Source: a virus | Taxonomy: Duplodnaviria > Caudoviricetes | Strand: one strand, 5' to 3' | DNA: 64,000 nt | Virus record (IMG/VR): IMGVR_UViG_3300020045_004441 | Span: 1-64,000 of that record | Shown: positions 1 to 50,138 of the stretch, piece after piece | How the letters are laid out: the number at the start of each line of letters is the position of its first letter | How positions within the stretch are numbered: the first letter of the stretch is position 1 | Made by a program: the position numbers and the translations under genes | Notes under the pieces: model-generated | What the model saw: the letters and a program-made list of their open reading frames with translations, nothing else | Told to the model about the DNA's origin: nothing | Databases searched by the model: none

Positions 1-3000
1 TAGGATTAGAATTTGAGCCTTATGGTGGTATTAAATCTGCTGATGAAGGTATGACTTCTTATGATCTTAATGATATACCAGAAGCTAGAGCAACTCAACA
101 GTCAGGATTAGAATTAACTGGTAAGGCTTTAGGTCAAGCTGTTAATGAATTAACTCTTGGAACCTTCGAGGCTGCTGGCTATTTACTGGATGCTCCAGGA
201 ATTTATAATGCTGTTGCTGGCAATGAAGGTGAATTTGACAACTTCTTTTCTAAAATATTCAGAGATGTAAAAGAGAATATCAATGAGAAGTATTTGCCAA
301 TATATCAAACTCACGCAGCTGAGAATGGCTCAATATTTGACGCCACATCTTTAGCAGCTAACTCAACTAGTTTGGCCGCATCATTAACTTTAATGATACC
401 AGCTCTTGGTGTTGCTAGAGGTCTTAATATTGCCGGTAAACTTGTTGGTATGGGAGCAAAAACCATTGCTTTAACTGAAGCAGTTGGAGCAGGTCTTGCA
501 TCTAGGCACACAGAGAATACCATGGAGGGTCAGCAGTATCTTAAACAATATACTGAAAAGAACAAGCAAGATTTAGCTCCTAAATATCAAGAGATGGCTG
601 AGGCCGAGATGGCTAACTTGCCATTAGTAATGCCACCAAATGAATATGGATTTTCACCATATTCTCAGGAAGATAGAGTTAAAGCTGAATCAGCTATTTT
701 AAATAAATATAAAACTCAGTTAGAATCCGAAGCTTCTCAAATGGCAGCTAAAGGAGCAAATAGAGTATATGCTGCTGATGGAGCATTAGCTGTTGTTGAT
801 GTACTGCAATACATGCCTCTCTTTAAAGGGTTTGGAAATGTACTTAAAGGTGTTAAGTTTTCTAAACCGGCAGAAACTGCATTTCAAATGGTTTCTGAGG
901 CTGGAGAGGAAGGATTCCAGCAGGGTAATCAAATGGAAGCATACGAGTCTACAAAGGCTGGTATAGATATGTTTGGGTCTGGTTATTCAGAGCGTCTTGG
1001 AGAATATCTTAAAGATAAAGATATGAAGATGAATGCTTTCTGGGGAGCTATGGGTGGTGGTGTATTCGCTGCTGCTGGGCCAATCGCCAAGAAAGCTGTT
1101 GATTCATACACAGATATAGATCTTACTAGAAAACGTGCTGCATTACGTAATGATGTAGATGCGTTCAATAAGATTGATGACGATATTAAAACCGATTTGA
1201 TATTTAAACATGCCAAGCGCGGTAGATTAGATAAACTATCTGCCGATATGGATGCTCTAGATCAATCTTTAGACGATCAGAATTGGAATGAAATTGGTAT
1301 TACCAAAGAAGAAGCCCAAGCTAAAATTAAATTATTCAAAGAAGATATTGCCTTTGCTAATGAACAGAAGGCTATTATAGATTCAAATCCAAACTTTAAG
1401 GATCATAAAGATGCTGCACTAGATTTTCTAAATGTAAAATTGAAAGCCAGGAATAATGGCAAGCAAATTAAAGATTTAAATACATCTCTAACATATCTAT
1501 ATAGAGAGATTCTAGATAATGGTGAGTTAGATTCTGGATTACTTGAGATTAAAAAACTACAAGACAATTTAAATGCGTTTAAAGAGATTAAATCTAATTT
1601 AACTAATATTCCTTCATTTAAGAAAGATAAGTCTCTCAAAGAGGCTACAAATGGCAAATTAGAGATCAATATTGGTCTATTGCAATCAAAACTTAATGAT
1701 GCAATAACTTCATACAAAGAAAGTAATCCAACTGTAGATATTAATACTGCAATCAAGACTGTTAACGATCCTAAGATTGCACAAAAATATAATAGATTAA
1801 AAGAATTACAGATTGTCAACGATGATGTTGTCAAGCCTACATTGGCTGCATATGAAAAAGCTTCTGTTATTAAGGAGAAGGATGCTAAATTAAAAGAAGA
1901 TCAAGCTAATGTAAATAGAGCTACCGTTGTTGAGGATGTAGTAAATGCTACAACCGAAGAAGATGTTGATGCTGTATTAGAATCTACACCAGAGGAAAAT
2001 ACAGATGATGCTATCAATGCTATAAATAAAAAAGCTGAGGAAGAATCTATTGATGCACCAGACACTCCAGATCTTAGATATGTAGGCAGACCAAATCTAT
2101 TCACTAAAGAGATGGGTGATTTAAATACTCATGTTATTGGCGAATATAACAATCAACTCACAGATACTACTGAGTCAGAATTAGCCGCAATAATAATGTC
2201 AACAAATGCAGAAGAGTTCAATAAAGCTTACATGGATTTATATAATCAATCTAAGCAGAATCTTGATGCAGCAAAGTTATTTGATGTTATGCAGAGGTTT
2301 TATGAAAATATTGGCAAGTCTAAAACAGATTTAGCTGATTCAAAGAATGTCAAAACTGATGGCGAGCATCAAATAGATGAATTTGAAGATACTGTAATTT
2401 CAGATTTTCATCCTACCGATAAGAAATCATCTGATATTGGTTATTTGCCAGTAGATGAATTTATCGCACCAACTCAAGGTATCTCTCCAAATAGAACAGC
2501 AATTCGTCAGTTTACTATAACTAAAGCTGGCAATAAAACCGTAATTAAAAGAGTTGATGGTGTTGCTGAATTAGACTTTGTGGCTAAGCAGATGCCTATT
2601 GATTGGGATTACGTTAACGACTCTAAGTCAGTAGCTGCTGGATCAGAAGTGTATTTTACTGTTAATCTTAATGATACTATTAGCACTAAAAAGACTGACT
2701 ATCATAAGAAATTGCAAGGTGAAGATTTCATCCACGCATCACAAATATTAATTGCTCAGAAAGATGCTGCTGGCGTAGAACACATTATATCTGCATTACC
2801 AATATATCAAGGGAGTAATGTTACGGAGAATGGCTTTAAACTTAAAGCGCTTAGGGAGCAAATTTGGCAAGGAGTTAAATCTTCTGGTCAAAAATTAGGC
2901 ACTTATAATTCTGGTATAACAACCAAGGTTACTAAGAAGTACTCTGGAATGCTGTTAATATCTAATACTAAGAATAATCCTCATGAAGTATTAAAACCTG

Positions 3001-6000
3001 GTGAGAAATTAGTTCTAGGTATTGCTAAGAATATTAATGGCAAAACAACTATTGATGCTGGTAAAAACGTTGATGCTGAATATAGTGGCATTGAAGTAGA
3101 TAATTCTAATGATGGTGGTATCTTTATTTTACTTAGAGGCACTAATGGTAGAATTATACCAGCCAGATGCTTCACTGCACAATTACAGAGATTTCCAGAG
3201 CTAATGGCTCAGGCTAAGAAGTTACTTGCTGAAACTAACAAAGATAATTGGGCTGTCAATAGAGAACAACTCCGTAAAATAGTGTATATAGATTATAATT
3301 ATATACCAAAAACCGATTCATTTGAATTGCGTGATAAGTCTGGTAATGTAACTACATTTAATAAAGATGGTTTGGATGCTATTCTTAGAACTAAAATAGT
3401 TCAGGTTGCGTCTAGTGAAATTAATCGTGGTAATTATAATGAAACTATCTCTAAACAAGGTAGACTCAAGACTGATATAACTCCTGGCAATCCTATTGTT
3501 AATTCAAACTTTGAATTCTCATTAGATTATCAAATGCCAGAGCAAAAGACTGAGACTACTAAAATCTCAATTAATGAAGCATTATCCTCTGATGAAGCTA
3601 GAGCTATTATTGGTGATGAATTTAGTGGTATTCCAACCATTTCTCCACAGCCTAAATTAATTGAAAACAATAATCTTCCAACTGAAGAACCTGAAATTCC
3701 AGATAGTTTTGAGGATTTCGATAATCCACTTGGAGATAATAATATTACACCAACTAGACTTAAAGTTGCATCTAATAAAGAGTTTTACCAAAAATGGGAT
3801 GAACTTAAAGAAACTAAGTGGTTTAAAGATAGATTTGATGAATCATTAATAGATACAGATAAATTCAGAGATGGATTAATTAACGTTTCTAAGAATGGTG
3901 GTATTCAAGCTTATGGTATGTTTAAAAATGCCGTGGCTTATATTAGTGGTGCAGCACAGACTGGCACTACATATCATGAGGCATTCCACGTAGTATTCAG
4001 TTTATATTTAAATGAGGCCCAAAGATCTCAGTTGCTTAAGGAGAATGCTAATTTAGGCAAGACTAATGTAGAGATTGAAGAATCCATTGCTGACAAGTTC
4101 ATGGATTACGTTAGATCTGAAGAGTTAGACAAAGGTGGTCTAGGTAAACAAATAGTAGATTTCTTTAAACAACTCTACTATATGATTAAGTCCAAGATTA
4201 CCAATGATTTAACTTTAGATCAAGTATTCTTTCAGGCTCAGCACAAGATGTATAAGAAGTCTCCATTTGCTAGAAATGTAGATAACTTTAAGGTTGTTAG
4301 ATATAGCATTGCAAATATGACTCCATATGAAGCCCAGCGCAGAGCTGTTGCTTTATCTGACGAGATGCGTAAGGCTTTAGATTCATATATTGAGCAAAAT
4401 CCAGATTTAAATAATACTCCTAGAAAGGATGCTATTGCTGGAATGCAACACACTAATGATAAGGGCGTTAAATTCTCTGGATTAGATATGCTTGCACTAA
4501 AGTCTAGGGCAGAACTCATTAAAATATATAACAGTGGCACTTTAGATGCAACGCAGAAAACTTCTATGGCTAAGATGATTAAAGAATTCATCTCTATGGA
4601 TGCTAGTGGTCAAGTTGTATTTGGAGAACTTGCTAGAAAATCATTGTTGCAATTTGCTAAGAATGAAGGGCTTCGTATTAGATTATCATCTAAGGAGATA
4701 TTCAGCTCTATAGATTCAACTGAAACTGATCCAGTAAATGATTTATTTGAGGAAGATACTCAAGCTGAAGGATGGCAAATATCTACCGAGAATGTGTCTC
4801 ATAAGGAATCTCTATCTAATGAAGTCCGCAAAGAGCTTAGTTATATTCCGCAAACCGTAGAGGATGGATCTCCAGAATTAGATGATCTCGGCTTTATTAT
4901 ATATCAAGATTTTAACACTGTTTTTAGCGATTTACAGCGTGATCTAGCTAATAGCGTAGATTCTGTTGAGATGATGGAGAAACTGGCTGAAACGGTCAAT
5001 AATAAGCCTTATTTGACAGATATATACAATAAAATAAACACTGATTTAAATCTAAGGACTAAATTCTTTGTTAACTTCCAATTGTCACATGTAGATTACG
5101 TTACGGTTCGCCAGAGAAAACAATATATACCACCAACAATTAAAGGAGCTAAAGGTACTTACAGTTATCAATATCATATATTCTCATCAAATAGAAATGG
5201 CGTTAAGAATATCTTGGTTGATGAATGGAAGGATAATTCTGTTGATCCAGCATTTAATAAAACTGTTAATAAAGATGGTTCTATTAATATGTCTGAAGTT
5301 GCTAAAGTTAAAACTCAGTGGGATAAATTAACTGCAATTCTTAGGAATAAAGATAATTATGGCCCAAGTGAAACTAAGCTGATGGCTAATATCCTAAATC
5401 ATATTGGAATAACTATTACAGTTAAAGACCTTAATGATTTAAATAAAAACTTTACTTCAGCTAATGGAAAAATAACTTACGGTAAGACTAAAATTAATAC
5501 ACTTAAATTTGAGTTAGACAAGATTGTTAATAGACTTTCTTTGGGTGAAAATCCATTTAGTTCAACATCATATGAATCAGAAGCTATTGATAATGTAGCT
5601 AAAACCATATCTAAATTTAGACATGAGCTCATGGAATCATCATTTAGAAATGGCGAGAATAAAACTATGTATGCTCACCAGACACCAACATTCCTATCAA
5701 GATCAATTCAGCAATTTAAAGGCAAAAATTGGGAAGATAGAATTGCTTGGTATCAACAAGATGTATTTTATAGAGACTCTGCTTGGTTAAATGAACTTAA
5801 AGAGATGGAGTCTCGTAATGAATTTGGTTTTATCGAAATAGATTCTATTAATTACGATAATAATAGTGATGGTATTAGATACACTAAAATGGCTCCTAAA
5901 GACTTTGAAAATACAGCTGTTAATATGTATTTCAATAATGGAGATAAAAACTATGTGTATTATAAATTCCCAGTAGTATCTGACGCACCAAAGATGCCAT

Positions 6001-9000
6001 TCATCAAATTCAGAAGGTTATCAACTGATCAAGTTGTGGACAAGCTATATGATGTATATCGTCAGGAATGGGCTAGGATTAATAGTATTAAAGAACGCGA
6101 ATCTTTACGTGCTGAATATATTAAAAATGGTCAACCGATTCCAGATGAGCTTAAGGTAATTAAGAATTACGATCACGAAAAGTCAAAACGATTCTTATTG
6201 CTGCCATTTTTAAATAATGGTAATCCACGAAAAGCTGTAGGCTCACAAGATGCAACTGCAATTAAGAGTGCAATAAAGGTTTGGATGGAATCTGAATCTC
6301 AAAAGGATTATGATCGTTTGGTTAAACTTGAAGTTCTTGGTAAAGATGCTGACGGTTCTGTTAGATATGATTCTAGAATAGATGCTTCTTGGGGTAATGA
6401 TAAAGCATTCCATAAAGATTATTTTTATAACTCGGTTTTAGCCAATAGTCAAATGATGTCAATCTTCTCTGGAGATCCAGCTTTCTACAAGGCAGATAAA
6501 GGAGATAAATTTCCATCTATATACAGCCGTACTGTTGACTACCAAAAGCGTAACAAACAGAATGTATCACCAAAGACTGTTATTGATGTTAATGCTATTG
6601 TTAACTTAACTGAATCGCAAGCTAAAACTGAAGGTAAAACACAATTAAGTGTTAGCCCATTCTATAATACAATATATGTTAAAGATAGGGAGATTGTTTC
6701 ATATAATAGAGATTCAATAAAAGATGGTCTACTAGATAGCGGGACAGACGAATTTAATGCGTTTAAGATAGCTGCTGAATATGGGTTTGCTAATTACTTT
6801 ACGGTCATTATCGACGGCAATACCAGCGAGTTTAAATCAGAACGTGATGCTCAAATTTTCGCAACCGCCAATAAATCTAAGGTCAATAGGTTTGCTGAAA
6901 CTTCAGATGGGCAATACTTTTCGTCAAAGGAAATCAACGTCACTGATGCCCAAGCATACATAACGCTTCCTAGATATAGGGAGATTATGGTTGGATTAGG
7001 TAGATGGACTACTAAATTACAAGATTTATATCCAAGATTATTAGATGGAACCGCATCTGGCAAGGAATTGCTTATGGTTATGCAACCTATTAAACCATTC
7101 TATTTTGGTCATAGCAAGGTTGGTAATCTAGTTGTTCCTACACAAAATAAGAATTCTGAGTATTTATTATTGCCACAATTGATCAAACAATCACCTGAGT
7201 TACAAAAACTCTATGATCACATGATTAATAATAATATCAGTTCAGCTAACTTTAACTCTGCTGTTAAAGCCGGAGAATTTGGTGCTCAGCCACTAGAAAA
7301 TATAGAGAATGCTTCTGTACATGTGTTAAACAATGCTGATTATGGATTACAGCAAGAAACACCTGAGCATCATATTGACTCACGTAGTCTTATTGGTAGT
7401 CAGATTAGAAAACTTTCTATTGCAGACATCAGTAAAGATGCTAAGTTTGATCTATATGGAAAACCATTCACTAAACAACAATTATTAGATCTATATCATG
7501 ACATTACATCAACTGATCTTGAGGAAGATTACAATAAGATTGCAGACAGATTTAGTAGTGTTGAGAATATACAGGACTTATTGTTTGCTGAGATCATTGA
7601 TCGCGACATGGGCGAAGAGCGTGAGAAAGCTGTTGAACTAGTAGACAGAGAAAATAAAGTTACTGGATTAATGGAGAAAGTATTTAACTTGCCATTATTT
7701 CATCCATATCACGCTAAGAGTAATGAGAGTTTAATGAACTCTGTATTCAAGAATAATATTACTAAGCAAAAAATTAAAGGTGGTGCATTCGTACAGGTAA
7801 GTGCATTTGGATTCGATAAGAGTCTTAAACTTAATATCAAGGATGGTAGATTGGTTTCTGCTGAATGTAAATTGCCTTGGTGGTCTAAGAAGTATTTTGA
7901 GCCAATGCTTGACGAGAATGGTCAGCTTGATATAAATAAAGTCCCAGAGAATCTACGTGAGATGATTGGCTATAGGATTCCTACTGAGGATAAATATTCC
8001 ATGCTTCCACTTATTGTAACTGGATTTTTACCTGCAAGTGCTGGTGGAGCTGTTATGCTACCAATGGAAATCACCACAATATCAGGTAGTGACTTTGATA
8101 TTGACAAGATGTATATTATGATGCCAGAGTGGGAGACCTCTGAGGATGGTAAAGATATACGCAAGGTTCAATATGATTTAAATGCAGAAGAATTACAATC
8201 CAAAGAAGCTCGCAATAATGCCAAAATAGACATCATTAGAGCTGTTTTAACGCACTCTGATACATTTGCTAAGATATTTAAGCCTGGTGGATTCCCAACG
8301 CTCTCAGAGCTTGCAGATAGGGTTCTTAAGCTCGAAGGCAAGGCTGATGAGATGCTACCAATGACACTACCATCAACACAGGCTGAGTTATTTAATCGGA
8401 ATATGACTGGCAAGGCTCTGATTGGGATATTTGCTAACCATAACACAAGTCATGCAATATTGCAGAATACCAAGATTGAATTTGCTAATCCAATATCATT
8501 TGATGGTGTTAACTTAAATTCATTACATGAGATTACAAATGCTAATGGTGACTTCATATCTAGAAACGTAGCCGAATGGTTGGCTGCTGTTGTAGATAAT
8601 GCTAAGAATCCATTGAGTGCATTTATAAACGTAAATACATATACTGCTGACGTTGCTGCAACTTTAACTAGGCTTGGTTATCCTCTAGAAACTGTTGTTG
8701 GATTCTTATCACAACCAATATTAAAAGAATTCTCAAATAGATATTTCAATAATGGTGCAAATCGTCAGGCTGAAATCAAAATTACAAAAGAATTAACAAC
8801 GCTATTTGCTGCTGCTAATTTTCAAGCAGAAGAAATAAAAGAAATAACTACTGATCAATTATTTAAAAATATTGAATCTGGAGAGTTGTTTAACAAGAGC
8901 CAATGGGATGTATTTAATACATTTATTCGAGTTAAAGAACAATCTACTGCACTTGCTGATTTAGTTAGAGCAACTAGAGCTGACACTAAAGGTGCTGGCC

Positions 9001-10442
9001 CAACTTTATCTGAGAATGATAAATTACTTAGACTTAGAACTCAGGTGTTGACTAATCAAGCATTAACTGGTGTGCAGGAATTGTTTGATGGCAAGGTTTA
9101 TCCAATGGAAAAAGCTTTTACAGAATTTGGCGTAGAAAAACCTACAGAGATATTATCCAAATACTTCCCATGGTTTAAGCCAGCCTGGAAAGGTGTTAAA
9201 GATAGAATCGAAGGTAATCTTAATGGTAAACAATTATCTGTTAAGCAAATAGAGCAGATTAATTATGAATTATTGGGATATGCTGCTAGCGGATTTGAAT
9301 TCTTTGACGGTAGTGATCGTGCTGATATTATTAACAATATGGCAAAGAAATTATATGCTATTAAAGAGAAATATCCTAAAGAATTTGCAGAGAACTATTT
9401 CTTAAATAAATTGATTGTTAAGTCTGATGAGAAATATCCCAATAGACCCAAAACTATCAACTTTAAGAATACAGGTAGTTTAACTGAGCAAGATAAACAG
9501 CAAGTTAAAGAGAATTGGTTACATTTGCTTCGTGATGATAAATTCAGTACTTTTGCAAAAGAGTTGATTAAATATTCATTCTACTCTGCTGGATTTCAGA
9601 TTACGCCAAATTCATTTAATCATTTAATACCAGTAGATTTCTATAGTAATTTAGAAATGACTGTAGCTGGAGAGAATGGAAAACCAGTGGTTGTTACATT
9701 TAATGAATATCTAGATAAAACTATGGCAGAAGCTGAATCTAAATCAATATTGAATCCATTCATAGAGCAATTTTATAAGAATAATTCAGATGATTCAAGT
9801 TTTGTGCCAATGGTTGATACTGATAAATTTAGCAACATAACTGGTGGTATTAATTATCTTAAAGGAAAACCTGCTTATTTTGAAGTTAACGCAGCAGATA
9901 AATCAACAACTAATGATTTCGTAATTAAGATTGAAGAGAAGGTGGCTACATTTAGTCCATTTGTTTCAATGAAAGAAAAAGGCGTTGTTTATCTGTATAA
10001 AGCAAATCAAGTAAGTAATATGAAAGCTGTTTATACTTTAACAAATAAACTTGGAGTTCCAAATCAAGTGCTAGAGTATATTAAGAATGGCATTGATAAG
10101 AGTGCAATTACTGAGAATAATCCATTTATAGGATTCACTGAAGCGGATGTAACTAATGCAATTCCAGAGACTAAGGCTAAAATTGAAGAGCAAGCTCAAC
10201 CGGAAGTTAATACTAATACAAAGCCCATAGACGAGTACTCTGAAATAACAGAATCGGTTGACCAGAGAGATATTGATACATTTAATGAATTGAAAGCTAA
10301 AATAATTGAATCTGAACTAACAAAAAAACAGATTGATATACTTAATCAATATAATAAATCAATAGGTGATTTGGTATTGATTGAAAATGACGTTAAATTA
10401 TCAAGAGAAAATATTGGAATACTAAAACAATTAGATTGTTAA
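1..10442 (+). CDS. Virion-packaged multisubunit-type RNA polymerase polyprotein (crAss-like, phi14:2 gp66-like); probably 5'-truncated by the window
   Basis: 3463-aa ORF from 51; the frame is also open from base 3 to 50 (GLEFEPYGGIKSADEG). Catalytic motif GSDFDIDK at 8085-8108, plus GYRIPTEDKYS and a zincin HEAFH motif at 3975-3989. Confidence 0.93.
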   Translation, partial: GLEFEPYGGIKSADEGMTSYDLNDIPEARATQQSGLELTGKALGQAVNELTLGTFEAAGYLLDAPGIYNAVAGNEGEFDNFFSKIFRDVKENINEKYLPIYQTHAAENGSIFDATSLAANSTSLAASLTLMIPALGVARGLNIAGKLVGMGAKTIALTEAVGAGLASRHTENTMEGQQYLKQYTEKNKQDLAPKYQEMAEAEMANLPLVMPPNEYGFSPYSQEDRVKAESAILNKYKTQLESEASQMAAKGANRVYAADGALAVVDVLQYMPLFKGFGNVLKGVKFSKPAETAFQMVSEAGEEGFQQGNQMEAYESTKAGIDMFGSGYSERLGEYLKDKDMKMNAFWGAMGGGVFAAAGPIAKKAVDSYTDIDLTRKRAALRNDVDAFNKIDDDIKTDLIFKHAKRGRLDKLSADMDALDQSLDDQNWNEIGITKEEAQAKIKLFKEDIAFANEQKAIIDSNPNFKDHKDAALDFLNVKLKARNNGKQIKDLNTSLTYLYREILDNGELDSGLLEIKKLQDNLNAFKEIKSNLTNIPSFKKDKSLKEATNGKLEINIGLLQSKLNDAITSYKESNPTVDINTAIKTVNDPKIAQKYNRLKELQIVNDDVVKPTLAAYEKASVIKEKDAKLKEDQANVNRATVVEDVVNATTEEDVDAVLESTPEENTDDAINAINKKAEEESIDAPDTPDLRYVGRPNLFTKEMGDLNTHVIGEYNNQLTDTTESELAAIIMSTNAEEFNKAYMDLYNQSKQNLDAAKLFDVMQRFYENIGKSKTDLADSKNVKTDGEHQIDEFEDTVISDFHPTDKKSSDIGYLPVDEFIAPTQGISPNRTAIRQFTITKAGNKTVIKRVDGVAELDFVAKQMPIDWDYVNDSKSVAAGSEVYFTVNLNDTISTKKTDYHKKLQGEDFIHASQILIAQKDAAGVEHIISALPIYQGSNVTENGFKLKALREQIWQGVKSSGQKLGTYNSGITTKVTKKYSGMLLISNTKNNPHEVLKPGEKLVLGIAKNINGKTTIDAGKNVDAEYSGIEVDNSNDGGIFILLRGTNGRIIPARCFTAQLQRFPELMAQAKKLLAETNKDNWAVNREQLRKIVYIDYNYIPKTDSFELRDKSGNVTTFNKDGLDAILRTKIVQVASSEINRGNYNETISKQGRLKTDITPGNPIVNSNFEFSLDYQMPEQKTETTKISINEALSSDEARAIIGDEFSGIPTISPQPKLIENNNLPTEEPEIPDSFEDFDNPLGDNNITPTRLKVASNKEFYQKWDELKETKWFKDRFDESLIDTDKFRDGLINVSKNGGIQAYGMFKNAVAYISGAAQTGTTYHEAFHVVFSLYLNEAQRSQLLKENANLGKTNVEIEESIADKFMDYVRSEELDKGGLGKQIVDFFKQLYYMIKSKITNDLTLDQVFFQAQHKMYKKSPFARNVDNFKVVRYSIANMTPYEAQRRAVALSDEMRKALDSYIEQNPDLNNTPRKDAIAGMQHTNDKGVKFSGLDMLALKSRAELIKIYNSGTLDATQKTSMAKMIKEFISMDASGQVVFGELARKSLLQFAKNEGLRIRLSSKEIFSSIDSTETDPVNDLFEEDTQAEGWQISTENVSHKESLSNEVRKELSYIPQTVEDGSPELDDLGFIIYQDFNTVFSDLQRDLANSVDSVEMMEKLAETVNNKPYLTDIYNKINTDLNLRTKFFVNFQLSHVDYVTVRQRKQYIPPTIKGAKGTYSYQYHIFSSNRNGVKNILVDEWKDNSVDPAFNKTVNKDGSINMSEVAKVKTQWDKLTAILRNKDNYGPSETKLMANILNHIGITITVKDLNDLNKNFTSANGKITYGKTKINTLKFELDKIVNRLSLGENPFSSTSYESEAIDNVAKTISKFRHELMESSFRNGENKTMYAHQTPTFLSRSIQQFKGKNWEDRIAWYQQDVFYRDSAWLNELKEMESRNEFGFIEIDSINYDNNSDGIRYTKMAPKDFENTAVNMYFNNGDKNYVYYKFPVVSDAPKMPFIKFRRLSTDQVVDKLYDVYRQEWARINSIKERESLRAEYIKNGQPIPDELKVIKNYDHEKSKRFLLLPFLNNGNPRKAVGSQDATAIKSAIKVWMESESQKDYDRLVKLEVLGKDADGSVRYDSRIDASWGNDKAFHKDYFYNSVLANSQMMSIFSGDPAFYKADKGDKFPSIYSRTVDYQKRNKQNVSPKTVIDVNAIVNLTESQAKTEGKTQLSVSPFYNTIYVKDREIVSYNRDSIKDGLLDSGTDEFNAFKIAAEYGFANYFTVIIDGNTSEFKSERDAQIFATANKSKVNRFAETSDGQYFSSKEINVTDAQAYITLPRYREIMVGLGRWTTKLQDLYPRLLDGTASGKELLMVMQPIKPFYFGHSKVGNLVVPTQNKNSEYLLLPQLIKQSPELQKLYDHMINNNISSANFNSAVKAGEFGAQPLENIENASVHVLNNADYGLQQETPEHHIDSRSLIGSQIRKLSIADISKDAKFDLYGKPFTKQQLLDLYHDITSTDLEEDYNKIADRFSSVENIQDLLFAEIIDRDMGEEREKAVELVDRENKVTGLMEKVFNLPLFHPYHAKSNESLMNSVFKNNITKQKIKGGAFVQVSAFGFDKSLKLNIKDGRLVSAECKLPWWSKKYFEPMLDENGQLDINKVPENLREMIGYRIPTEDKYSMLPLIVTGFLPASAGGAVMLPMEITTISGSDFDIDKMYIMMPEWETSEDGKDIRKVQYDLNAEELQSKEARNNAKIDIIRAVLTHSDTFAKIFKPGGFPTLSELADRVLKLEGKADEMLPMTLPSTQAELFNRNMTGKALIGIFANHNTSHAILQNTKIEFANPISFDGVNLNSLHEITNANGDFISRNVAEWLAAVVDNAKNPLSAFINVNTYTADVAATLTRLGYPLETVVGFLSQPILKEFSNRYFNNGANRQAEIKITKELTTLFAAANFQAEEIKEITTDQLFKNIESGELFNKSQWDVFNTFIRVKEQSTALADLVRATRADTKGAGPTLSENDKLLRLRTQVLTNQALTGVQELFDGKVYPMEKAFTEFGVEKPTEILSKYFPWFKPAWKGVKDRIEGNLNGKQLSVKQIEQINYELLGYAASGFEFFDGSDRADIINNMAKKLYAIKEKYPKEFAENYFLNKLIVKSDEKYPNRPKTINFKNTGSLTEQDKQQVKENWLHLLRDDKFSTFAKELIKYSFYSAGFQITPNSFNHLIPVDFYSNLEMTVAGENGKPVVVTFNEYLDKTMAEAESKSILNPFIEQFYKNNSDDSSFVPMVDTDKFSNITGGINYLKGKPAYFEVNAADKSTTNDFVIKIEEKVATFSPFVSMKEKGVVYLYKANQVSNMKAVYTLTNKLGVPNQVLEYIKNGIDKSAITENNPFIGFTEADVTNAIPETKAKIEEQAQPEVNTNTKPIDEYSEITESVDQRDIDTFNELKAKIIESELTKKQIDILNQYNKSIGDLVLIENDVKLSRENIGILKQLDC

Positions 10443-24290: not shown

Positions 24291-26168
24291 TCAGATAACC
24301 TCACACGAACCGCTTCCTCCACAAGCAACCTCTCCCATTAAAGATGTTTCATCATACCCTTCGATAACTTTAGTTAAATCTACATTTTTAAGATTAACTA
24401 TTGCTGCATCATACTCTTCTTTAGTGCAAGATTCAAATGGAGCCTGAATATATGAATGATTATCATGTGGCAATACAGCAATTCCACTGTATGTTTTACG
24501 ATTATTCCACATCCATCCAGCAACCTCATCCCATTCATTGTCTCTGATAGATACAGTACAACTCACATTATGCTGATTATATCCACTTCTAAATCCAGGA
24601 TTAACCCATTGTTCTGTAACAGCTTTAACTCTAGTAAGTAAATCTATCGCAGATTCATTTCTAATAATAGAACCTTCTGGAGCTTTTTGTGGGATCTTAA
24701 TAATTGCAGTTGTTGATGCATTAAAGAAATCATCTTCAAGTAATTCTGGATTATTATTAAGTAAATATCCATAAATACTTTCATTTTTATTCACTCGCAT
24801 TCTTCTCCAATAGTAATTATCGTGCCAAGCATGAATTCCGCTAGAAGTTCCCAATACTAAGCTAGTTGTACCGGCCGGCTTAACGGTCGTTATTCTTGCA
24901 GCTCGCCTAATGCCAATTCTATCAGCATATTCAGCGTTTGTATCGACGGCAATAGAGGCCGCTTCTTCAAGATTATAATTAAACACTTTCATCGAAGCAA
25001 TTCCAGTCATTGAAACGCCCAGTAAAGCATCTTTCTCGCAATTAGTCTTCCAAGAATCTCGCAAATAATGAAAATCTGTATATGAAGCCTGTAATGTTCC
25101 AATTATAGATGCGGCCCTAACTCGATCATTCAAATCTTGTTGAGATTCAATATTTGAAACATTAACTTCAGTCAAATTGCAACATGCTGTGTCTCTGAGA
25201 CTTATCTCGTGGCACGGGTTGAATCCCATCTCTGGATTATTAGTCCAAGATATTCCTGGCTCCCCTGCGCCTGAAGCTTTAATATAATTCCATAACTTCA
25301 AGAAGTCTTCTTTTTTAACTCTAGATCTAACAACTACTGCACTGTTATTTGCTAATCTAAAGTGAGGATTTGTGTCCCACCAATTGCCAGATTTACATGA
25401 AAGCATGTCTGTATCATCAATTGTAAACAATGCTATTAGCGATGCTCTTCTTATTCCACCCGACAATACTGCATCTGCGATGTGACACATAATTGAATGT
25501 GCCTCCAGTGTTGATAATTGATCTCCATCATTTTTAGACTCAAGAATTCCTTGAATTTTGACCAAGCACTCTCTTAGCGGCCTAGCTCCAGGAGCTTTTC
25601 CACCTGATGTAATTAATAATGAGCCCTTAGCTCTAATTTCTCTAAAATCAAAATCTATAGATGAATTTGATAATCCAAAATACGATTTTATCAAAACCTT
25701 AACTGCATCTGCCCACCCCTGAATACTATCAGATATAACATATCTACGGCGTCTGTTGATATTAGGCTTTCTAATTAATGGAAGCTTGGCTACGTGATGC
25801 TTCTGTACAGAATATCCCAGCCCACAGCCGCTTAGCAATAAAAACATTGCTTCCTGAAATATTCTTATATCGTTAACTGCGGCATAAGAGCAGTTATACA
25901 ATCTTGCTGGGTTGATTTTGGCTGCCTTACCAGCAAACTGAAGACTCCTCATCGACGGAAGAACCTTCTTGTCATACACGTATTGATACGCATCTCGAAT
26001 GTCTTTTTGTAATGATGGAAACTTCTCAATATGCATTTCCATATTACGAGTAACTATTTCACTCCAAGACTCTCGCCTATTCTTTTCGGGTAAAAACCTA
26101 GCATATTTATTAAAAATAGTGATTTCACTCAATATCTCTCTGCTCACATCTCTCTCACTATCGCTCAT
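24291..26168 (-). CDS. nrdJ: Class II (B12-dependent) ribonucleotide reductase, monomeric type
   Basis: PSMRSLQ, NPCHEISL (NxCxE), TVKPAGTTS, C-terminal CGGSGSCEV. Confidence 0.92.
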   Translation of the reverse strand: MSDSERDVSREILSEITIFNKYARFLPEKNRRESWSEIVTRNMEMHIEKFPSLQKDIRDAYQYVYDKKVLPSMRSLQFAGKAAKINPARLYNCSYAAVNDIRIFQEAMFLLLSGCGLGYSVQKHHVAKLPLIRKPNINRRRRYVISDSIQGWADAVKVLIKSYFGLSNSSIDFDFREIRAKGSLLITSGGKAPGARPLRECLVKIQGILESKNDGDQLSTLEAHSIMCHIADAVLSGGIRRASLIALFTIDDTDMLSCKSGNWWDTNPHFRLANNSAVVVRSRVKKEDFLKLWNYIKASGAGEPGISWTNNPEMGFNPCHEISLRDTACCNLTEVNVSNIESQQDLNDRVRAASIIGTLQASYTDFHYLRDSWKTNCEKDALLGVSMTGIASMKVFNYNLEEAASIAVDTNAEYADRIGIRRAARITTVKPAGTTSLVLGTSSGIHAWHDNYYWRRMRVNKNESIYGYLLNNNPELLEDDFFNASTTAIIKIPQKAPEGSIIRNESAIDLLTRVKAVTEQWVNPGFRSGYNQHNVSCTVSIRDNEWDEVAGWMWNNRKTYSGIAVLPHDNHSYIQAPFESCTKEEYDAAIVNLKNVDLTKVIEGYDETSLMGEVACGGSGSCEVI

Positions 26169-28947: not shown

Positions 28948-29181
28948 CTATGAATTAAGTTCATAATACTCCATTGTTTTATTATACAGATTATCAGCAA
29001 TTTCTTCAGCCTTTGAATTATCCATCTCAGCAAAGTAATCAACGAGTTCATCGCTGATTATCCTTGCCGTATCAAGATTATTAGAATTGATGTTCTTCTT
29101 ATATATATTAATGACATCTTTATTGTTTTTAGACATTAAGACCATTAACATATCTGCAATTCTAAATAGTTCGTCTTTCAT
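28948..29181 (-). CDS. Hypothetical protein
   Basis: 77-aa ORF. Confidence 0.6.
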   Translation of the reverse strand: MKDELFRIADMLMVLMSKNNKDVINIYKKNINSNNLDTARIISDELVDYFAEMDNSKAEEIADNLYNKTMEYYELNS

Positions 29182-30617
29182 CCTAAAACACTATAAGGTG
29201 GCACAATTAAATCCTCAAGAAGTTCTTTATCTCCCTGAGCATCCATATTAACCATATAATCCTTCCGCCATTGCACATATCCACTTAAAATTGTTGCCAA
29301 TTCTGGTAAATATACGTCGCTGAATATAGAATTTAAGTTAACAGTTCTCAAATCACTAAAATTAGCAATCTCATCTTTATGTTTTTCAACATAAGCCATT
29401 ACAGCATTACAGATAAATAGCCAATTAAGCATTTTGTGAGGGTTCTGAGTGATTGTATGAAGTCTGAATTCATGCGTGCCCGATCCACCCCAAATCATTG
29501 GTATACAGTTAGTTATGAAATATCTCTGAGAAATATTCCATTTCTGTCTGTTCTCTCTATCTAGAGGATGATTCTTTACACCAAATCCTTCAAAATGACC
29601 ATTACCTCCAGAATAAAAATTATATAATGCTTCAAAATTCTGATCAACAGTATTATTTTTCAATAATCTAATGTTCTTAATTGGAGCACAATAATCTTTC
29701 TCTTTGAATTTATTTTCAGATGTGAACTGATAATTACTTGGAAACATACTATAAAGCTCATCCTGAATTCTCAGCATAACTCTATGCATTGCTACAACAA
29801 ACGCTTTAGATGGAGCATATCCGCCAATATGTAAATGAAGAGAACATTTCTTACCTATAGTGGTATATTTCTGAATTAAATCAGCAATATCAACCATAGT
29901 ATGAACACCTTTCTCTCCACTTAATGGGATTGTTGTGAATTCAAATGGCTCAATACCATCGTGTCTTAAACTGCCATCTCTAAGTGGAATTAATCCATTC
30001 TTAAAGCATTTCTGTTCAGGTATATAACCATCAGCAGTCTCCACTTCAAAGCCAAACGTCTTGTCATTCAGCTCTTTAGCGAATTTGGCTAGTTTTGGAA
30101 GATACTTACTTGGCGTATAAGCCTTATCATAAGCTTCTTTGAATTGCTTAATCTTAGGCCCAGCACTGTAAGATAAATCAAATGAATATCTAGCGCCAAT
30201 GCCTTTCTTATTAAGTCGCTCGTTAGATAGCTTGCCTTTAGGATAGAATGTTCCGGTGGAAATCTCTTCAACGAATCCAAGTTTATTTGGAATCTCATCA
30301 GAAATACATATTACATCATTCATCCTAACGTTCTTTAGTGGATTTGGAGAGAAATAACCATTAATGGCAACTCCCTTATCGTCAACTCCAACAATGCCCT
30401 CATATAGCTCAGTGTTTTCTAATAGAACCCACCTCTGAGCCTCATGGTCAAATGCGATTAATCCATTGTTAATTCTGTGCCATTTATTATCTGGCATCAA
30501 AAAACAATCTACATTAATCTCATAATATTCATTTTTAATATAACGACATTTATTTCTTGGAACTAATTTACCATTAACAGTTGTTACTGTAAAATCTTTT
30601 GTATTAGAAATTGTCAT
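29178..30617 (-). CDS. Putative amidoligase (Amidoligase_2, glutamine-synthetase-like fold)
   Basis: TFGFEVET, DGSL, EPFEFTT, CSLHLHIG, THEFRLH. Confidence 0.8.
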   Translation of the reverse strand: MTISNTKDFTVTTVNGKLVPRNKCRYIKNEYYEINVDCFLMPDNKWHRINNGLIAFDHEAQRWVLLENTELYEGIVGVDDKGVAINGYFSPNPLKNVRMNDVICISDEIPNKLGFVEEISTGTFYPKGKLSNERLNKKGIGARYSFDLSYSAGPKIKQFKEAYDKAYTPSKYLPKLAKFAKELNDKTFGFEVETADGYIPEQKCFKNGLIPLRDGSLRHDGIEPFEFTTIPLSGEKGVHTMVDIADLIQKYTTIGKKCSLHLHIGGYAPSKAFVVAMHRVMLRIQDELYSMFPSNYQFTSENKFKEKDYCAPIKNIRLLKNNTVDQNFEALYNFYSGGNGHFEGFGVKNHPLDRENRQKWNISQRYFITNCIPMIWGGSGTHEFRLHTITQNPHKMLNWLFICNAVMAYVEKHKDEIANFSDLRTVNLNSIFSDVYLPELATILSGYVQWRKDYMVNMDAQGDKELLEDLIVPPYSVLG

Positions 30618-32520
30618 ATCCTGTAACTAGGGTGAATTTTTTAAATTTATTTTCTTCGAGTAAAATATCTTCCAACTTGGATAGATTATTAATAGACATA
30701 GCTGCATCTTGTGTTGAAATACCAGACACTTCAATGTCATTACGACAAGCATCAATTGCCATCAGAATAGCACTTAACCCATCATTTAAAGCTGTTTTAA
30801 GCAAGGAAGCATCGGAACTTATTGCGTCATCAATATAACCCAATCCTCTGCATAGCGAGCAAACGTTCATATTTGCATCATCGCCAGTACCATTGCAGTC
30901 TGGACATAATATACAATTTTCAGGCAAATCATCATCGCTTGGCCCAGCCTCAGATGCAACTTCAATTTCTTCCTTGAGTTTATTATGCTTATCTAAGATG
31001 GCATCCATCTCATCTTCACATTGTTTACATGTGCATGTTGTTGGATGTTGAATTAAATCACCAGCTTTTTCTGTATAAACTACTGGTAATGTAATAATCT
31101 TAGTCTCAGTCTTTTCGTGAACTGGCTTATTTATGACAGCAAGAAACTCAACACTTATTAAACTACCACCAGCAAATCTATACTTCTTTGTACTAAATAA
31201 TGGTGTTACATTTCCAGTAAATAATGGAGCCTTGCATTGCATTGCTGCTGGATTTTTAAGCCATACTCTAGCGTTATCATATGTTGGTAGCTCATGATCT
31301 AATGTACATACTGGATATTCAGCATATTCACATATTTTCATTACGTTCATTTCAGTGTCATTGAAATGCCTAGCTTTACCAAGATTACGTCTACACTTAT
31401 CAAATGCATCTTTATCTTTAAGCATTATTCCACGATAGAAATAATATGGCTTTTCATCAGAAGCACATGCATATTCGCCTTTAACGCCACTCTCATCAAG
31501 ATTAATAATACCATTAGCATAAGTTGGAGTTACGCCATCAAACATAAAGTAATACCTCAATCTTGCGCAAATAATCTTTTTAGGATTAAAGTTTTTACAG
31601 ATCATGTCTTTCTTGATGCTTAATTTAAATGTCTCTTTAACTTGTGGATACGCTGATTCGTAATAAGCTGCAATTGCCTCTGCATTACCATAGCCATCAT
31701 CCCAATCGTCAGTTCTACCATAACCATAATGCTTAGTACTAGAATTATTGGCAGTATTTACATATGTTGTTGTTGGCCATATTTTATTCTGAGAACAATC
31801 TTTTCTATCGAACACTTGCTCGCTAATTATCTGACCACCAAAAATTGTATATAATTTATTTGGCTCAAAATCCACCACGTTATCAGCATCACCACCAATA
31901 AAATATAATCCATCACACTTTGATGAAATATACATTGAGGTTTCTGACTCTTGATAATAACACAATGGACGCTCTTCTTCAACTTTGACTCCATATGTTT
32001 TAGATAAACCTTTAAATACCTTTAAAGTATCAGGCTCTCTATCGTCCTTAATAATTATTGCAGCTGCACCATTGTATTCAAGCAATACTCCAAAACCATA
32101 ATTCATAATAATTTCAGCAAATACCATTGAGTCAGATTTTCCTTTCTTATCAATATTGTATTTCTTAGCAAGCTCTTCCCAATTATGGAGAGTGCCATTA
32201 TGAATCATTATGAATCTACCTGAACCATCTGGTAAATCAAGTACTACCGGCTGAGCTGTAGCTTCTGATATCTCACCAACACTAGCTTTTCTAGTGTGAC
32301 CCAAGGCGATGTGCGATGGGTCACTATTCTTCGTGTTGATAACATAATCTTGATATGTTGTTTTAGCTTTCTTTGATACAAATTTATCAATCGTCTCTCC
32401 AACAATTCTACCAATGGAATCACCTCCACGCTCATCGTTGTCTAATCCAAGATGATTAAATTTATCCCAATTGAAGTTGTGATTATTTCTTAAACTGTTG
32501 TAGGCCCAAAGTCCACACAT
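30604..32520 (-). CDS. Class II (Ntn) glutamine amidotransferase with long C-terminal extension
   Basis: N-terminal MCGL, RGGDSIG, LGHTRKAS, HNGTL, DS; C-terminal CxxCxGxG pair. Confidence 0.85.
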   Translation of the reverse strand: MCGLWAYNSLRNNHNFNWDKFNHLGLDNDERGGDSIGRIVGETIDKFVSKKAKTTYQDYVINTKNSDPSHIALGHTRKASVGEISEATAQPVVLDLPDGSGRFIMIHNGTLHNWEELAKKYNIDKKGKSDSMVFAEIIMNYGFGVLLEYNGAAAIIIKDDREPDTLKVFKGLSKTYGVKVEEERPLCYYQESETSMYISSKCDGLYFIGGDADNVVDFEPNKLYTIFGGQIISEQVFDRKDCSQNKIWPTTTYVNTANNSSTKHYGYGRTDDWDDGYGNAEAIAAYYESAYPQVKETFKLSIKKDMICKNFNPKKIICARLRYYFMFDGVTPTYANGIINLDESGVKGEYACASDEKPYYFYRGIMLKDKDAFDKCRRNLGKARHFNDTEMNVMKICEYAEYPVCTLDHELPTYDNARVWLKNPAAMQCKAPLFTGNVTPLFSTKKYRFAGGSLISVEFLAVINKPVHEKTETKIITLPVVYTEKAGDLIQHPTTCTCKQCEDEMDAILDKHNKLKEEIEVASEAGPSDDDLPENCILCPDCNGTGDDANMNVCSLCRGLGYIDDAISSDASLLKTALNDGLSAILMAIDACRNDIEVSGISTQDAAMSINNLSKLEDILLEENKFKKFTLVTGYDNF

Positions 32521-49458: not shown

Positions 49459-49477
49459 AATAATATAGATTCTAACT

Positions 49478-49500
49478 AAAAGGGTGTTGACGTACACCCT
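49478..49500 (-). terminator. Intrinsic terminator ending the tmRNA coding piece
   Basis: AGGGTGT-ACGTCA-ACACCCT followed by TTT. Confidence 0.7.
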
Positions 49501-49790
49501 AGGAAACGTTCCTAATTAAGCTGCAATAGCAACCTCACGGAATAAATTGATAGTTTTGCCTGTTATGGCAATTAAATTCTACTCTAATCTACTAACATCG
49601 CTGTCAAAACCAGTCAGCCCCGTAAAACAATGAGTTATTGGTTCAATTAAATAAGTTATACTCATCCGTTCCATCTTTAACTCACTGTAAAACCGTACTA
49701 ACGCGACGGGTTAGCGCAACTCAATTGGCTTGAGCGAGTGGAGCTGAGGGGAATCGAACCCCTGTCCAAACAACTGTATAATTAGCATCA
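49478..49790 (-). ncRNA. ssrA: Circularly permuted two-piece tmRNA gene
   Basis: Acceptor piece (GGAC, T-arm AGGGG-TTCGATT-CCCCT, CAGCTCC-A, 49767-49739) lies upstream of the coding piece (GGGGCTGACTGGTTTTGACAGC from 49621). The acceptor stem has G3.U70. Tag ORF 49560-49516 is GKTINLFREVAIAA* after ATAACA. Confidence 0.9.
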
Positions 49791-49805
49791 AACGAATTTA
49801 ATTTG

Positions 49806-49885
49806 TACGCAGAGATGGATTTGAACCACCGATCTTTCCGTAGCCGTAGCCCGCCGGAGTGCTTTAACCGCTAAGCTATCTGCGA
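49806..49885 (-). tRNA. tRNA-like element with a 14-nt insert in place of the anticodon loop (no callable anticodon)
   Basis: Acceptor CGCAGA/TCTGCG, D-arm GCTT-AGCGGTTA-AAGC, T-arm GGTGG-TTCAAAT-CCATC; anticodon stem TCCG/CGGA enclosing GCGGGCTACGGCTA. Confidence 0.7.
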
Positions 49886-49892
49886 ATATTAA

Positions 49893-50138
49893 TTACACTT
49901 TAACCCCTCTAGTCCAAATTACTGACCAAATCTCAGTGCGTGTGGCTTTATCTAGTCCAGATTTAGCCAATACTCTTGATAATGTCAGTTTACGACCAGC
50001 CTTGCGACTGAATTGATCACCATGGCCACATTTAGCAATAGCAATATTTTCAGTGCCATTAACTGTTAATACACATGATGTAGTTTTATTTGGCACATCA
50101 TGATGCCAATCAATTTTAATGCTGTCAGTGATTTTCAT
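49893..50138 (-). CDS. Hypothetical protein
   Basis: 81 aa; AKCGHGDQFSRKAGRKL resembles a common phage family. Confidence 0.7.
   Translation of the reverse strand: MKITDSIKIDWHHDVPNKTTSCVLTVNGTENIAIAKCGHGDQFSRKAGRKLTLSRVLAKSGLDKATRTEIWSVIWTRGVKV

Follow-up and report, generated by a model that had tools for sequence, protein, structure and literature searches.

Circularly permuted transfer-messenger RNA (tmRNA) is a textbook RNA gene rearrangement, credited to three bacterial lineages and to jakobid mitochondria. In this work we have analyzed a locus of this kind on the minus strand of a 64,000-nt stretch of phage DNA (the window; positions 1 to 64,000 of the IMG/VR virus record IMGVR_UViG_3300020045_004441), which is part of a 77-kb record, 76% complete. 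The large terminase (TerL) of the phage is 43-47% identical to those of crAss001, IAS virus and related Crassvirales, which bears out its placement among crAss-like phages; it is closest to Steigviridae-like phages, and its TerL is ~35% identical to those of gut (Suoliviridae) phages that carry tmRNA genes. The cultured hosts across the order are all Bacteroidota.

An earlier note, made from the letters of the window alone, had read the locus as a two-piece tmRNA gene, and both detectors applied here agree with it. ARAGORN called a permuted tmRNA on the minus strand with the tag GKTINLFREVAIAA, and the Rfam model RF04321 (tmRNA_permuted) was matched over its full length (1-213) with 70.3 bits, its gathering score being 47, and with E=1.7e-11 for a search of the whole window, a match far beyond chance. 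In the RF04321 alignment the acceptor piece comes first (5′) and the coding piece second.

The acceptor piece (49739..49805, minus strand as for all features below), ~67 nt to which CCA is predicted to be added post-transcriptionally, was delimited by ARAGORN, RF04321 and the co-fold of the two predicted pieces, and its 5′ end is placed where an adjoining tRNA-like element would end. It carries, from 5′ to 3′, an outer-helix strand (49803-49794; 10 bp with 49579-49570 in the co-fold), the helix 2b strand CTAAT (49785-49781), the helix 2a strand GTTGTT (49774-49769) followed by GGAC, the T-arm AGGGG-TTCGATT-CCCCT (49763-49747, read from the sequence) and the 3′ acceptor strand CAGCTCC (49746-49740) with the discriminator A at 49739. 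No CCA is encoded, as previously noted, since CTC directly follows the discriminator. The next 117 nt (49622..49738) form a spacer that is predicted to be removed; its length varies among homologues of conserved pieces, and only its initial ~21 nt (CTCGCTCAAGCCAATTGAGTT, with a 5-bp hairpin) are common to the closest homologue, G004, the remainder being unconserved. The coding piece (49477..49621, ~145 nt; ARAGORN, RF04321, co-fold) begins at G1 = 49621 with the 5′ acceptor strand GGGGCTG (49621-49615), which pairs with CAGCTCC. There follow the D-loop analogue ACTGGTTTTGA with its GG, found unchanged in Bacteroidota tmRNAs, the helix 2a strand GACAGC (49605-49600; Rfam alignment and co-fold), which pairs with GTTGTT, and the helix 2b strand ATTAG (49588-49584; Rfam alignment and G004 covariation), which pairs with CTAAT. 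The outer-helix strand GAATTTAATT (49579-49570) is separated by the 9-nt linker GCCATAACA from the tag frame GGC...GCT TAA (49516..49560; ARAGORN, RF04321), which encodes GKTINLFREVAIAA. Nothing more lies 3′ of the tag stop than a small hairpin and, at 49477..49500, a terminator-like hairpin (AGGGTGT-ACGTCA-ACACCCT, then TTTT; conserved in G004), the predicted 3′ end of the coding piece. The mature RNA would total ~215 nt.

On re-reading, the positions previously assigned to the T-arm, acceptor strands, spacer, G1 and tag frame were all recovered, and two details had to be corrected. The gene does not end at 49790: the acceptor piece reaches ~49805 and includes the outer-helix bases 49803-49794. 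Helix 2b had been drawn as TTAGTA/TGCTAA; the Rfam alignment and a compensatory change in G004 favour ATTAG/CTAAT.

The features of a tmRNA are present in the window gene: a 7-bp acceptor stem (GGGGCTG/CAGCTCC) with G3.U70 and the discriminator A73, a T-arm loop of the TTCGAnn type and a GG-bearing D-loop analogue, and a short tag frame without a start codon that ends with a hydrophobic residue, AA and a stop. Helix 2 is seen in the Rfam alignment and in the co-fold and shows covariation with G004 and between the relatives G025 and G027. When the two predicted pieces were co-folded without constraints, the acceptor stem, the T-arm, helix 2a, a second helix-2 segment and the 10-bp outer helix were all obtained, and the co-fold of the pre-tag part only gave z=-4.6 against shuffled sequences.

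Relatives of the phage were represented by 80 IMG/VR contigs with a related terminase, and the whole records behind 50 of them were searched for tmRNA genes. RF04321 identified two further permuted genes above the cut-off (G027 and G044), and those of G004 and G025, missed by the detectors, were recognized by inspection. The same model applied to gut phages in RefSeq/GenBank gave 60.3 bits for cr50_1, 50.9 for cr114_1, 41.3 for cr52_1 and 40.0 for cr272_1. Nine permuted genes could be compared, namely that of the window (G000) and those of G004, G025, G027, G044, cr50_1, cr114_1, cr52_1 and cr272_1. The closest homologue, in G004 (IMGVR_UViG_3300025600_000032; TerL 78% identical), lies between homologues of both flanking open reading frames (ORFs) and keeps the acceptor stem, helix 2 and the outer helix. 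Its acceptor stem, GGGGGTG/CACCTCC, differs from that of the window by a compensatory change, and across homologues the stem takes the forms GGGGCTG/CAGCTCC, GGGGGTG/CACCTCC, GGGGTTG/CAACTCC and GGGGCAT/ATGCTCC with G3.U70 and A73 invariant. Helix 2b is ATTAG/CTAAT in the window and AATAG/CTATT in G004, and G025, a gene of the G027 type with a spacer of 340 nt versus 65 nt in G027, differs from G027 in helix 2a by two double compensatory changes. Covariation is thereby seen in three helices, and the identity and architecture of the window gene are demonstrated.

Throughout the nine genes both pieces are conserved around a spacer of 65-340 nt, and 59-65 nt separate G1 from the resume codon. The resume context ATAAC-N-G(G/C)CAA is found in most of them (relaxed in G004, G044 and cr50_1), an encoded CCA is absent from all eight genes with a readable 3′ end, and the tag frame is open in 9/9, most tags ending in AA. 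The architecture extends to contigs assembled from four public sequencing runs (wastewater, groundwater, seawater), where relatives only were met, as contigs, with 5-8% of words; these contigs bridge the two pieces in the same gene order, and no RNA run was among those listed for the locus. Some of the contigs lack 68-70 nt of the spacer, the gap starting exactly at the 49621/49622 boundary, and some carry a different 81-nt sequence in the slot of the upstream tRNA-like element, in keeping with a spacer that can be dispensed with and a tRNA handle that can be exchanged. When two stretches common to the window and G004 were used as exact patterns to scan IMG/VR, G004 alone was returned, plus chance matches inside protein genes.

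The behaviour of the tag frame bears on whether such RNAs tag proteins at all. A decoy or inhibitor RNA, whose tRNA-like domain would titrate host SmpB, alanyl-tRNA synthetase (AlaRS) or EF-Tu and so block host trans-translation while the tag frame is vestigial, would be in keeping with the loss of every pseudoknot in the window gene and with the degenerate tRNA-like domain of G004, and it has a precedent in the tag-less tmRNA fragment of mycobacteriophage DS6A, reported to inhibit host tmRNA (cited in PMC11915505). However, the G004 tag, GKTVNFSQELLIAA, retains the frame length of the window despite 13 base differences (2 synonymous and 6 non-synonymous codon changes) and keeps the stop codon and the C-terminal IAA. 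Together with the frame held open throughout the family and the conserved A-rich context before the resume codon, this makes a decoy an unlikely explanation.

The origin of the gene was approached with models specific to the known permuted lineages. On the window gene the alphaproteobacterial model RF01849 gave no match, the betaproteobacterial model RF01850 gave 38 bits against a cut-off of 84 and the cyanobacterial model RF01851 gave 37.8 bits against a cut-off of 70; the gene of cyanophage S-CAM1, as a positive control, scored 128 bits on the cyanobacterial model. One genome per bacterial species was then scanned for the 22 nt with which the coding piece opens (GGGGNTGACTGGTTTTGACAGC, position 5 free), with at least 119 loci found; 117 of 119 were from Bacteroidota among the matches listed. 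Standard one-piece tmRNAs with GENNYALAA-type tags resuming at Gly account for 110 of the listed loci, in agreement with the earlier view of the Gly resume codon as typical of Bacteroidota, and CCA is encoded after the discriminator in only 4 of the listed loci. A Bacteroidota source is indicated alike by the tRNA-like domain, the resume codon and the absence of an encoded CCA, and with it an origin apart from the three known permuted lineages; for the Crassvirales family this separate origin is well supported by the sequence comparisons.

Horizontal capture of a gene from one of those lineages (Alphaproteobacteria, Betaproteobacteria, Cyanobacteria or their phages), with no independent permutation, would have to be reconciled with scores far below the cut-offs of all the lineage-specific models, with a 5′ domain exactly matching that of Bacteroidota tmRNAs and with a Gly resume codon, as against Ala-Asn and a 5-nt spacer in S-CAM1. 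Host-type two-piece tmRNAs do occur in marine phages (PMC9004378), and the only blastn match of the locus among 50,697 phage records was to S-CAM1, 95% over 40 nt. This match is confined to the T-arm and acceptor end and was rejected as a sign of kinship because the T-arm is near-universal; capture is accordingly considered very improbable. A false positive or an assembly artefact, such as a misjoined tandem or circular assembly mimicking permutation, is barely credible: ARAGORN permuted calls do include false positives (three spurious ones beside standard genes in the bacterial loci), but ARAGORN and RF04321 agree as independent detectors, and the same gene order recurs in the independent assemblies G004, G025, G027 and G044, in four GenBank/RefSeq phage genomes and in contigs from four public runs, which span both pieces, so that this reading is already contradicted.

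We therefore regard the window gene, with a probability of roughly 0.8, as a genuine circularly permuted (two-piece) tmRNA gene of a Crassvirales-wide family, descended from a one-piece Bacteroidota tmRNA and not from the permuted lineages of Alphaproteobacteria, Betaproteobacteria or Cyanobacteria. The earlier note had inferred an independent permutation in a phage. Its independence from the three lineages holds, in view of the lineage models and the Bacteroidota-type 5′ domain; the event is not this phage's own, because the pseudoknot-free architecture is common across Crassvirales including gut phages in RefSeq. The permutation belongs to the phage family and not to the window phage alone.

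Several observations weigh against this interpretation. Pseudoknot 1, normally present in tmRNA, was looked for upstream of the resume codon of the window gene and is absent; there is no room for it, because only 61 nt separate G1 from the resume codon (~85 nt in one-piece genes of crAss-like phages, ~95 nt in host genes) and the outer helix ends 9 nt before GGC. Pseudoknot 1 is not universal to tmRNA, and a hairpin can replace it in Escherichia coli. In G004 the T-loop is cut to 6 nt (TTCGTC) and the GG of the D-loop analogue is lost, and therefore some family members may be decaying or work differently; the G004 tmRNA would have either a decaying or a rewired tRNA corner. The T-arm of the window is identical to that of S-CAM1, and the T-arm alone cannot tell lineages apart. 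When the locus was compared by blastn with the 50,697 phage records, no match to the gut crAss genes was found beyond the universal T-arm, and the G044 and G027 genes gave nothing, or T-arm matches to Achromobacter phages only. Outside the universal tRNA-like domain the family members share short motifs only, e.g. GCCATAAC and TAGAATAG, so that the homology of the family is argued from architecture and short motifs, blastn finding no similarity. Finally, transcription, cleavage, CCA addition, alanylation, SmpB dependence and tagging are, for the window RNA, predictions from sequence.

Directly adjoining the 5′ end of the acceptor piece (49806 versus ~49805) there is a degenerate tRNA-like element (49806..49885, minus strand) that scores 46.8 bits on the Rfam tRNA model, whose gathering score is 29. 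The element has normal acceptor, D and T arms, with U.U as the first pair, and a tandem duplication of 6 nt (GGCTAC GGCTAC) disrupts its anticodon arm and leaves a 14-nt loop. ARAGORN at default settings did not call this element. At lowered thresholds it proposed either Pro(GGG) interrupted by a 5-nt "intron" or an unusual anticodon of 4 bases; a suppressor or quadruplet-decoding tRNA was considered on this account and rejected, and the element was treated as a degenerate tRNA. The same slot in G004 holds a normal tRNA-Asn(GTT). We infer that the element serves as a handle for RNase P and 3′ processing, which would fix where the acceptor piece begins, and it may survive solely in this role. 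In cr114_1 (NC_055897.1) a tRNA-His(GTG) gene sits inside the spacer between the two permuted pieces, where its processing would be predicted to free both tmRNA ends.

With its stop at 49893, the upstream ORF comes within 8 nt of the tRNA-like element, and the RNA genes are for this reason probably excised from a longer leftward transcript. The putative pathway would start with leftward transcription of the gene within such a transcript. The tRNA-processing enzymes would cut at the tRNA-like element, after the discriminator A 49739 and at G1 49621, the 117-nt spacer being discarded, and the host CCA-adding enzyme would finish the acceptor end. The resulting ~70-nt acceptor and ~145-nt coding pieces would be held together by the acceptor stem, helix 2a/2b and the 10-bp outer helix, the last occupying the place of pseudoknot 1 in ordinary tmRNAs. 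Host AlaRS could charge the RNA via G3.U70, and host SmpB and EF-Tu could bring it to stalled ribosomes; SmpB (PF01668) was searched for in the phage record (76% complete) and not found. Translation would resume at GGC and append the tag, which together with the charged Ala is predicted to be AGKTINLFREVAIAA. The phage may gain by keeping ribosome rescue running during infection or by marking the rescued proteins with a tag of its own.

One-piece tmRNA genes were also found in related phages. The standard tmRNA model detected them above the cut-off in 8 of the 50 records, together with three weaker full-length matches, and several were confirmed by ARAGORN. Coordinate arithmetic places all of them on the strand opposite to TerL and 8.6-15 kb upstream of it, an arrangement that the window gene shares. 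Their resume context TTTAAAC is that of Flavobacteriaceae hosts. A near-invariant pseudoknot-1 block of ~31 nt (CAGCCAGAGAGATAACTGTAAACTAAGGTGA) is common to G007, G021, G031, G040, G005 and G017 and recurs in non-crAss Cellulophaga phages (Calle_1, phi38:1) and Flavobacterium phages (FpV, FPSV); it is absent from 110 sampled host tmRNAs with up to 6 errors allowed. The tag starts given by ARAGORN for these six genes look too far downstream, the frames being open at GGN right after TAAAC/T, with tags of ~27-45 residues. In Cellulophaga phage phi14:2, a cultured member of Crassvirales (KC821624.1, ~4031-4500), ARAGORN called a one-piece tmRNA with the tag GSSVQKLAMVA that is below the cut-off of the standard Rfam model; the GenBank entry has small "hypothetical protein" coding sequences (gp012-gp014) in this region.

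On a FastTree TerL tree the permuted genes occupy three places: the clade of the window phage and G004, the pair G025/G027, and the long branch of G044. The G025/G027 pair is sister to the one-piece G007 clade with a support of 90. Conversion in situ, considered for G025 versus G007, was rejected when strict synteny failed: the flanking small genes are not conserved, and one homologue is ~5 kb away. Because of these unconserved flanks a shared neighbourhood can be claimed, not an orthologous site, and the G025/G007 comparison does not distinguish permutation in situ from replacement. We lean towards the view that the Crassvirales tmRNAs represent a fourth independent permuted origin, phage-borne and derived from a one-piece Bacteroidota gene, with loss of all four pseudoknots and with flanking or embedded tRNA or tRNA-like processing handles, and with repeated exchange or interconversion of the one-piece and two-piece forms among related phages.

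Elsewhere the record encodes primase, helicase and ribonucleotide reductase genes. A Pfam search of the ORFs flanking the tmRNA locus and of the giant ORFs gave no match. One of the latter, of 3,463 aa (51-10442, plus strand), has a DFDID motif at residue 2681, which fits the DFDxD catalytic motif of the crAss-like virion RNA polymerase. Next to the ribonucleotide reductase gene (24291-26168), two adjoining genes on the minus strand (29178-32520) match the PHROG families of amidoligase (E=4.9e-36) and glutamine amidotransferase-like proteins (E=1.8e-9 to 6.7e-8).

Phage-borne permuted tmRNA genes are already in the public records, which settles the earlier question of whether such examples had been catalogued. 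Buchholz et al. (2022, PMC9004378) counted 53 two-piece genes in a set of 133 unique phage tmRNAs, 50 of the 53 coming from marine or aquatic phages according to the main text, and in their Table S1 at least 13 genomes named "CrAssphage_cr*_1" are entered as "Permuted" and Cellulophaga phage phi14:2 as "linear". The table marks these 13 crAssphages as human, the GenBank record giving pig feces for cr272_1, and among its further entries are several phages of Stenotrophomonas, Streptomyces, Xanthomonas and Mesorhizobium with a human or soil origin; text and table seem to disagree on the sources. The cr50_1 and cr114_1 genes are labelled "transfer-messenger RNA, SsrA" in GenBank/RefSeq, and for Bacteroidota the tmRNA database counts 24,380 standard and 48 permuted entries (PMC11915505). 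Among the papers searched for tmRNA in crAss-like phages none discusses it, the word appearing only in methods sections and reference lists. The window gene is, since its family is already in public records, a further member of an annotated family and not a new kind; what is new here is the non-gut clade and the presence of one-piece and two-piece forms in the same genome neighbourhood. If true, a phage-borne, Bacteroidota-derived and pseudoknot-free lineage would add a fourth permuted origin. A natural minimal tmRNA of ~215 nt could show which parts trans-translation needs, the related genomes with one- and two-piece genes offer material for reconstructing how the permutation arose, and the question is raised why abundant Bacteroidota phages bring their own rescue RNA with its own tag.

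The nearest counterparts of the window gene are those of the gut crAss-like phages (Suoliviridae: cr50_1, MT774375.1 39374-39869; cr114_1, NC_055897.1 19180-19622; cr52_1; cr272_1). They have the same order of acceptor piece, spacer and coding piece, a 7-bp acceptor stem with G3.U70 and A73 (6/7 pairs in cr272_1), no encoded CCA, the same 59-65 nt from G1 to the resume codon with pseudoknot 1 absent, and an A-rich ATAAC-type context before a GGC AAx resume codon that opens a short tag starting with Gly, in the gut phages with Gly-Asn. The genes of cr50_1, cr114_1 and cr52_1 lie 12-16 kb upstream of TerL on the opposite strand, that of cr272_1 ~28 kb upstream. The window gene differs from them in coming from another phage family and an environmental source, in its unrelated tag (GKTINLFREVAIAA versus GN..VTDYT.. 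in the gut) and in the placement of the tRNA-like element, which abuts its 5′ end, whereas the tRNA-His of cr114_1 is within the spacer. The one-piece genes of crAss-like phages (G007, G021, G031, G040, G005, G033, G009, G023 and phi14:2, KC821624) share with the permuted gene the genome neighbourhood, the unencoded CCA and a Bacteroidota-type tRNA-like domain, and their tags start with Gly-Lys or Gly-Asn. They differ in being unpermuted, in keeping the pseudoknot-1 block and in their much longer tags, and their flanking genes are not conserved relative to those of the permuted genes.

In comparison with the one-piece tmRNA of Bacteroidota (RF00023), the first 22 nt, comprising the 5′ acceptor strand, the D-loop analogue and the start of helix 2a, are identical, and the T-arm with the acceptor end is identical at 28 of 29 positions to that of the nearest Bacteroidota tmRNA, from Prolixibacteraceae; the Gly resume codon, a tag ending in AA and the unencoded CCA are shared as well. 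The host gene is continuous, ~360-400 nt long and equipped with pseudoknots 1-4, whereas the phage gene is permuted, ~215 nt when mature, pseudoknot-free and provided with a longer, different tag. With the two-piece tmRNAs of Alphaproteobacteria, a betaproteobacterial group, Cyanobacteria and their phages (RF01849, RF01850, RF01851; phage examples being Synechococcus phage S-CAM1 and the OM43 phage Melnitz) it shares the principle of an acceptor piece encoded upstream of the coding piece, the two held together by the acceptor stem and helix 2, and a match to the general model RF04321. Those two-piece tmRNAs retain pseudoknot 1. The examples of these types that were examined resume with Ala, in S-CAM1 with Ala-Asn, and the S-CAM1 pieces are separated by a spacer of just 5 nt, whereas the window gene resumes with Gly and has a spacer of 117 nt.

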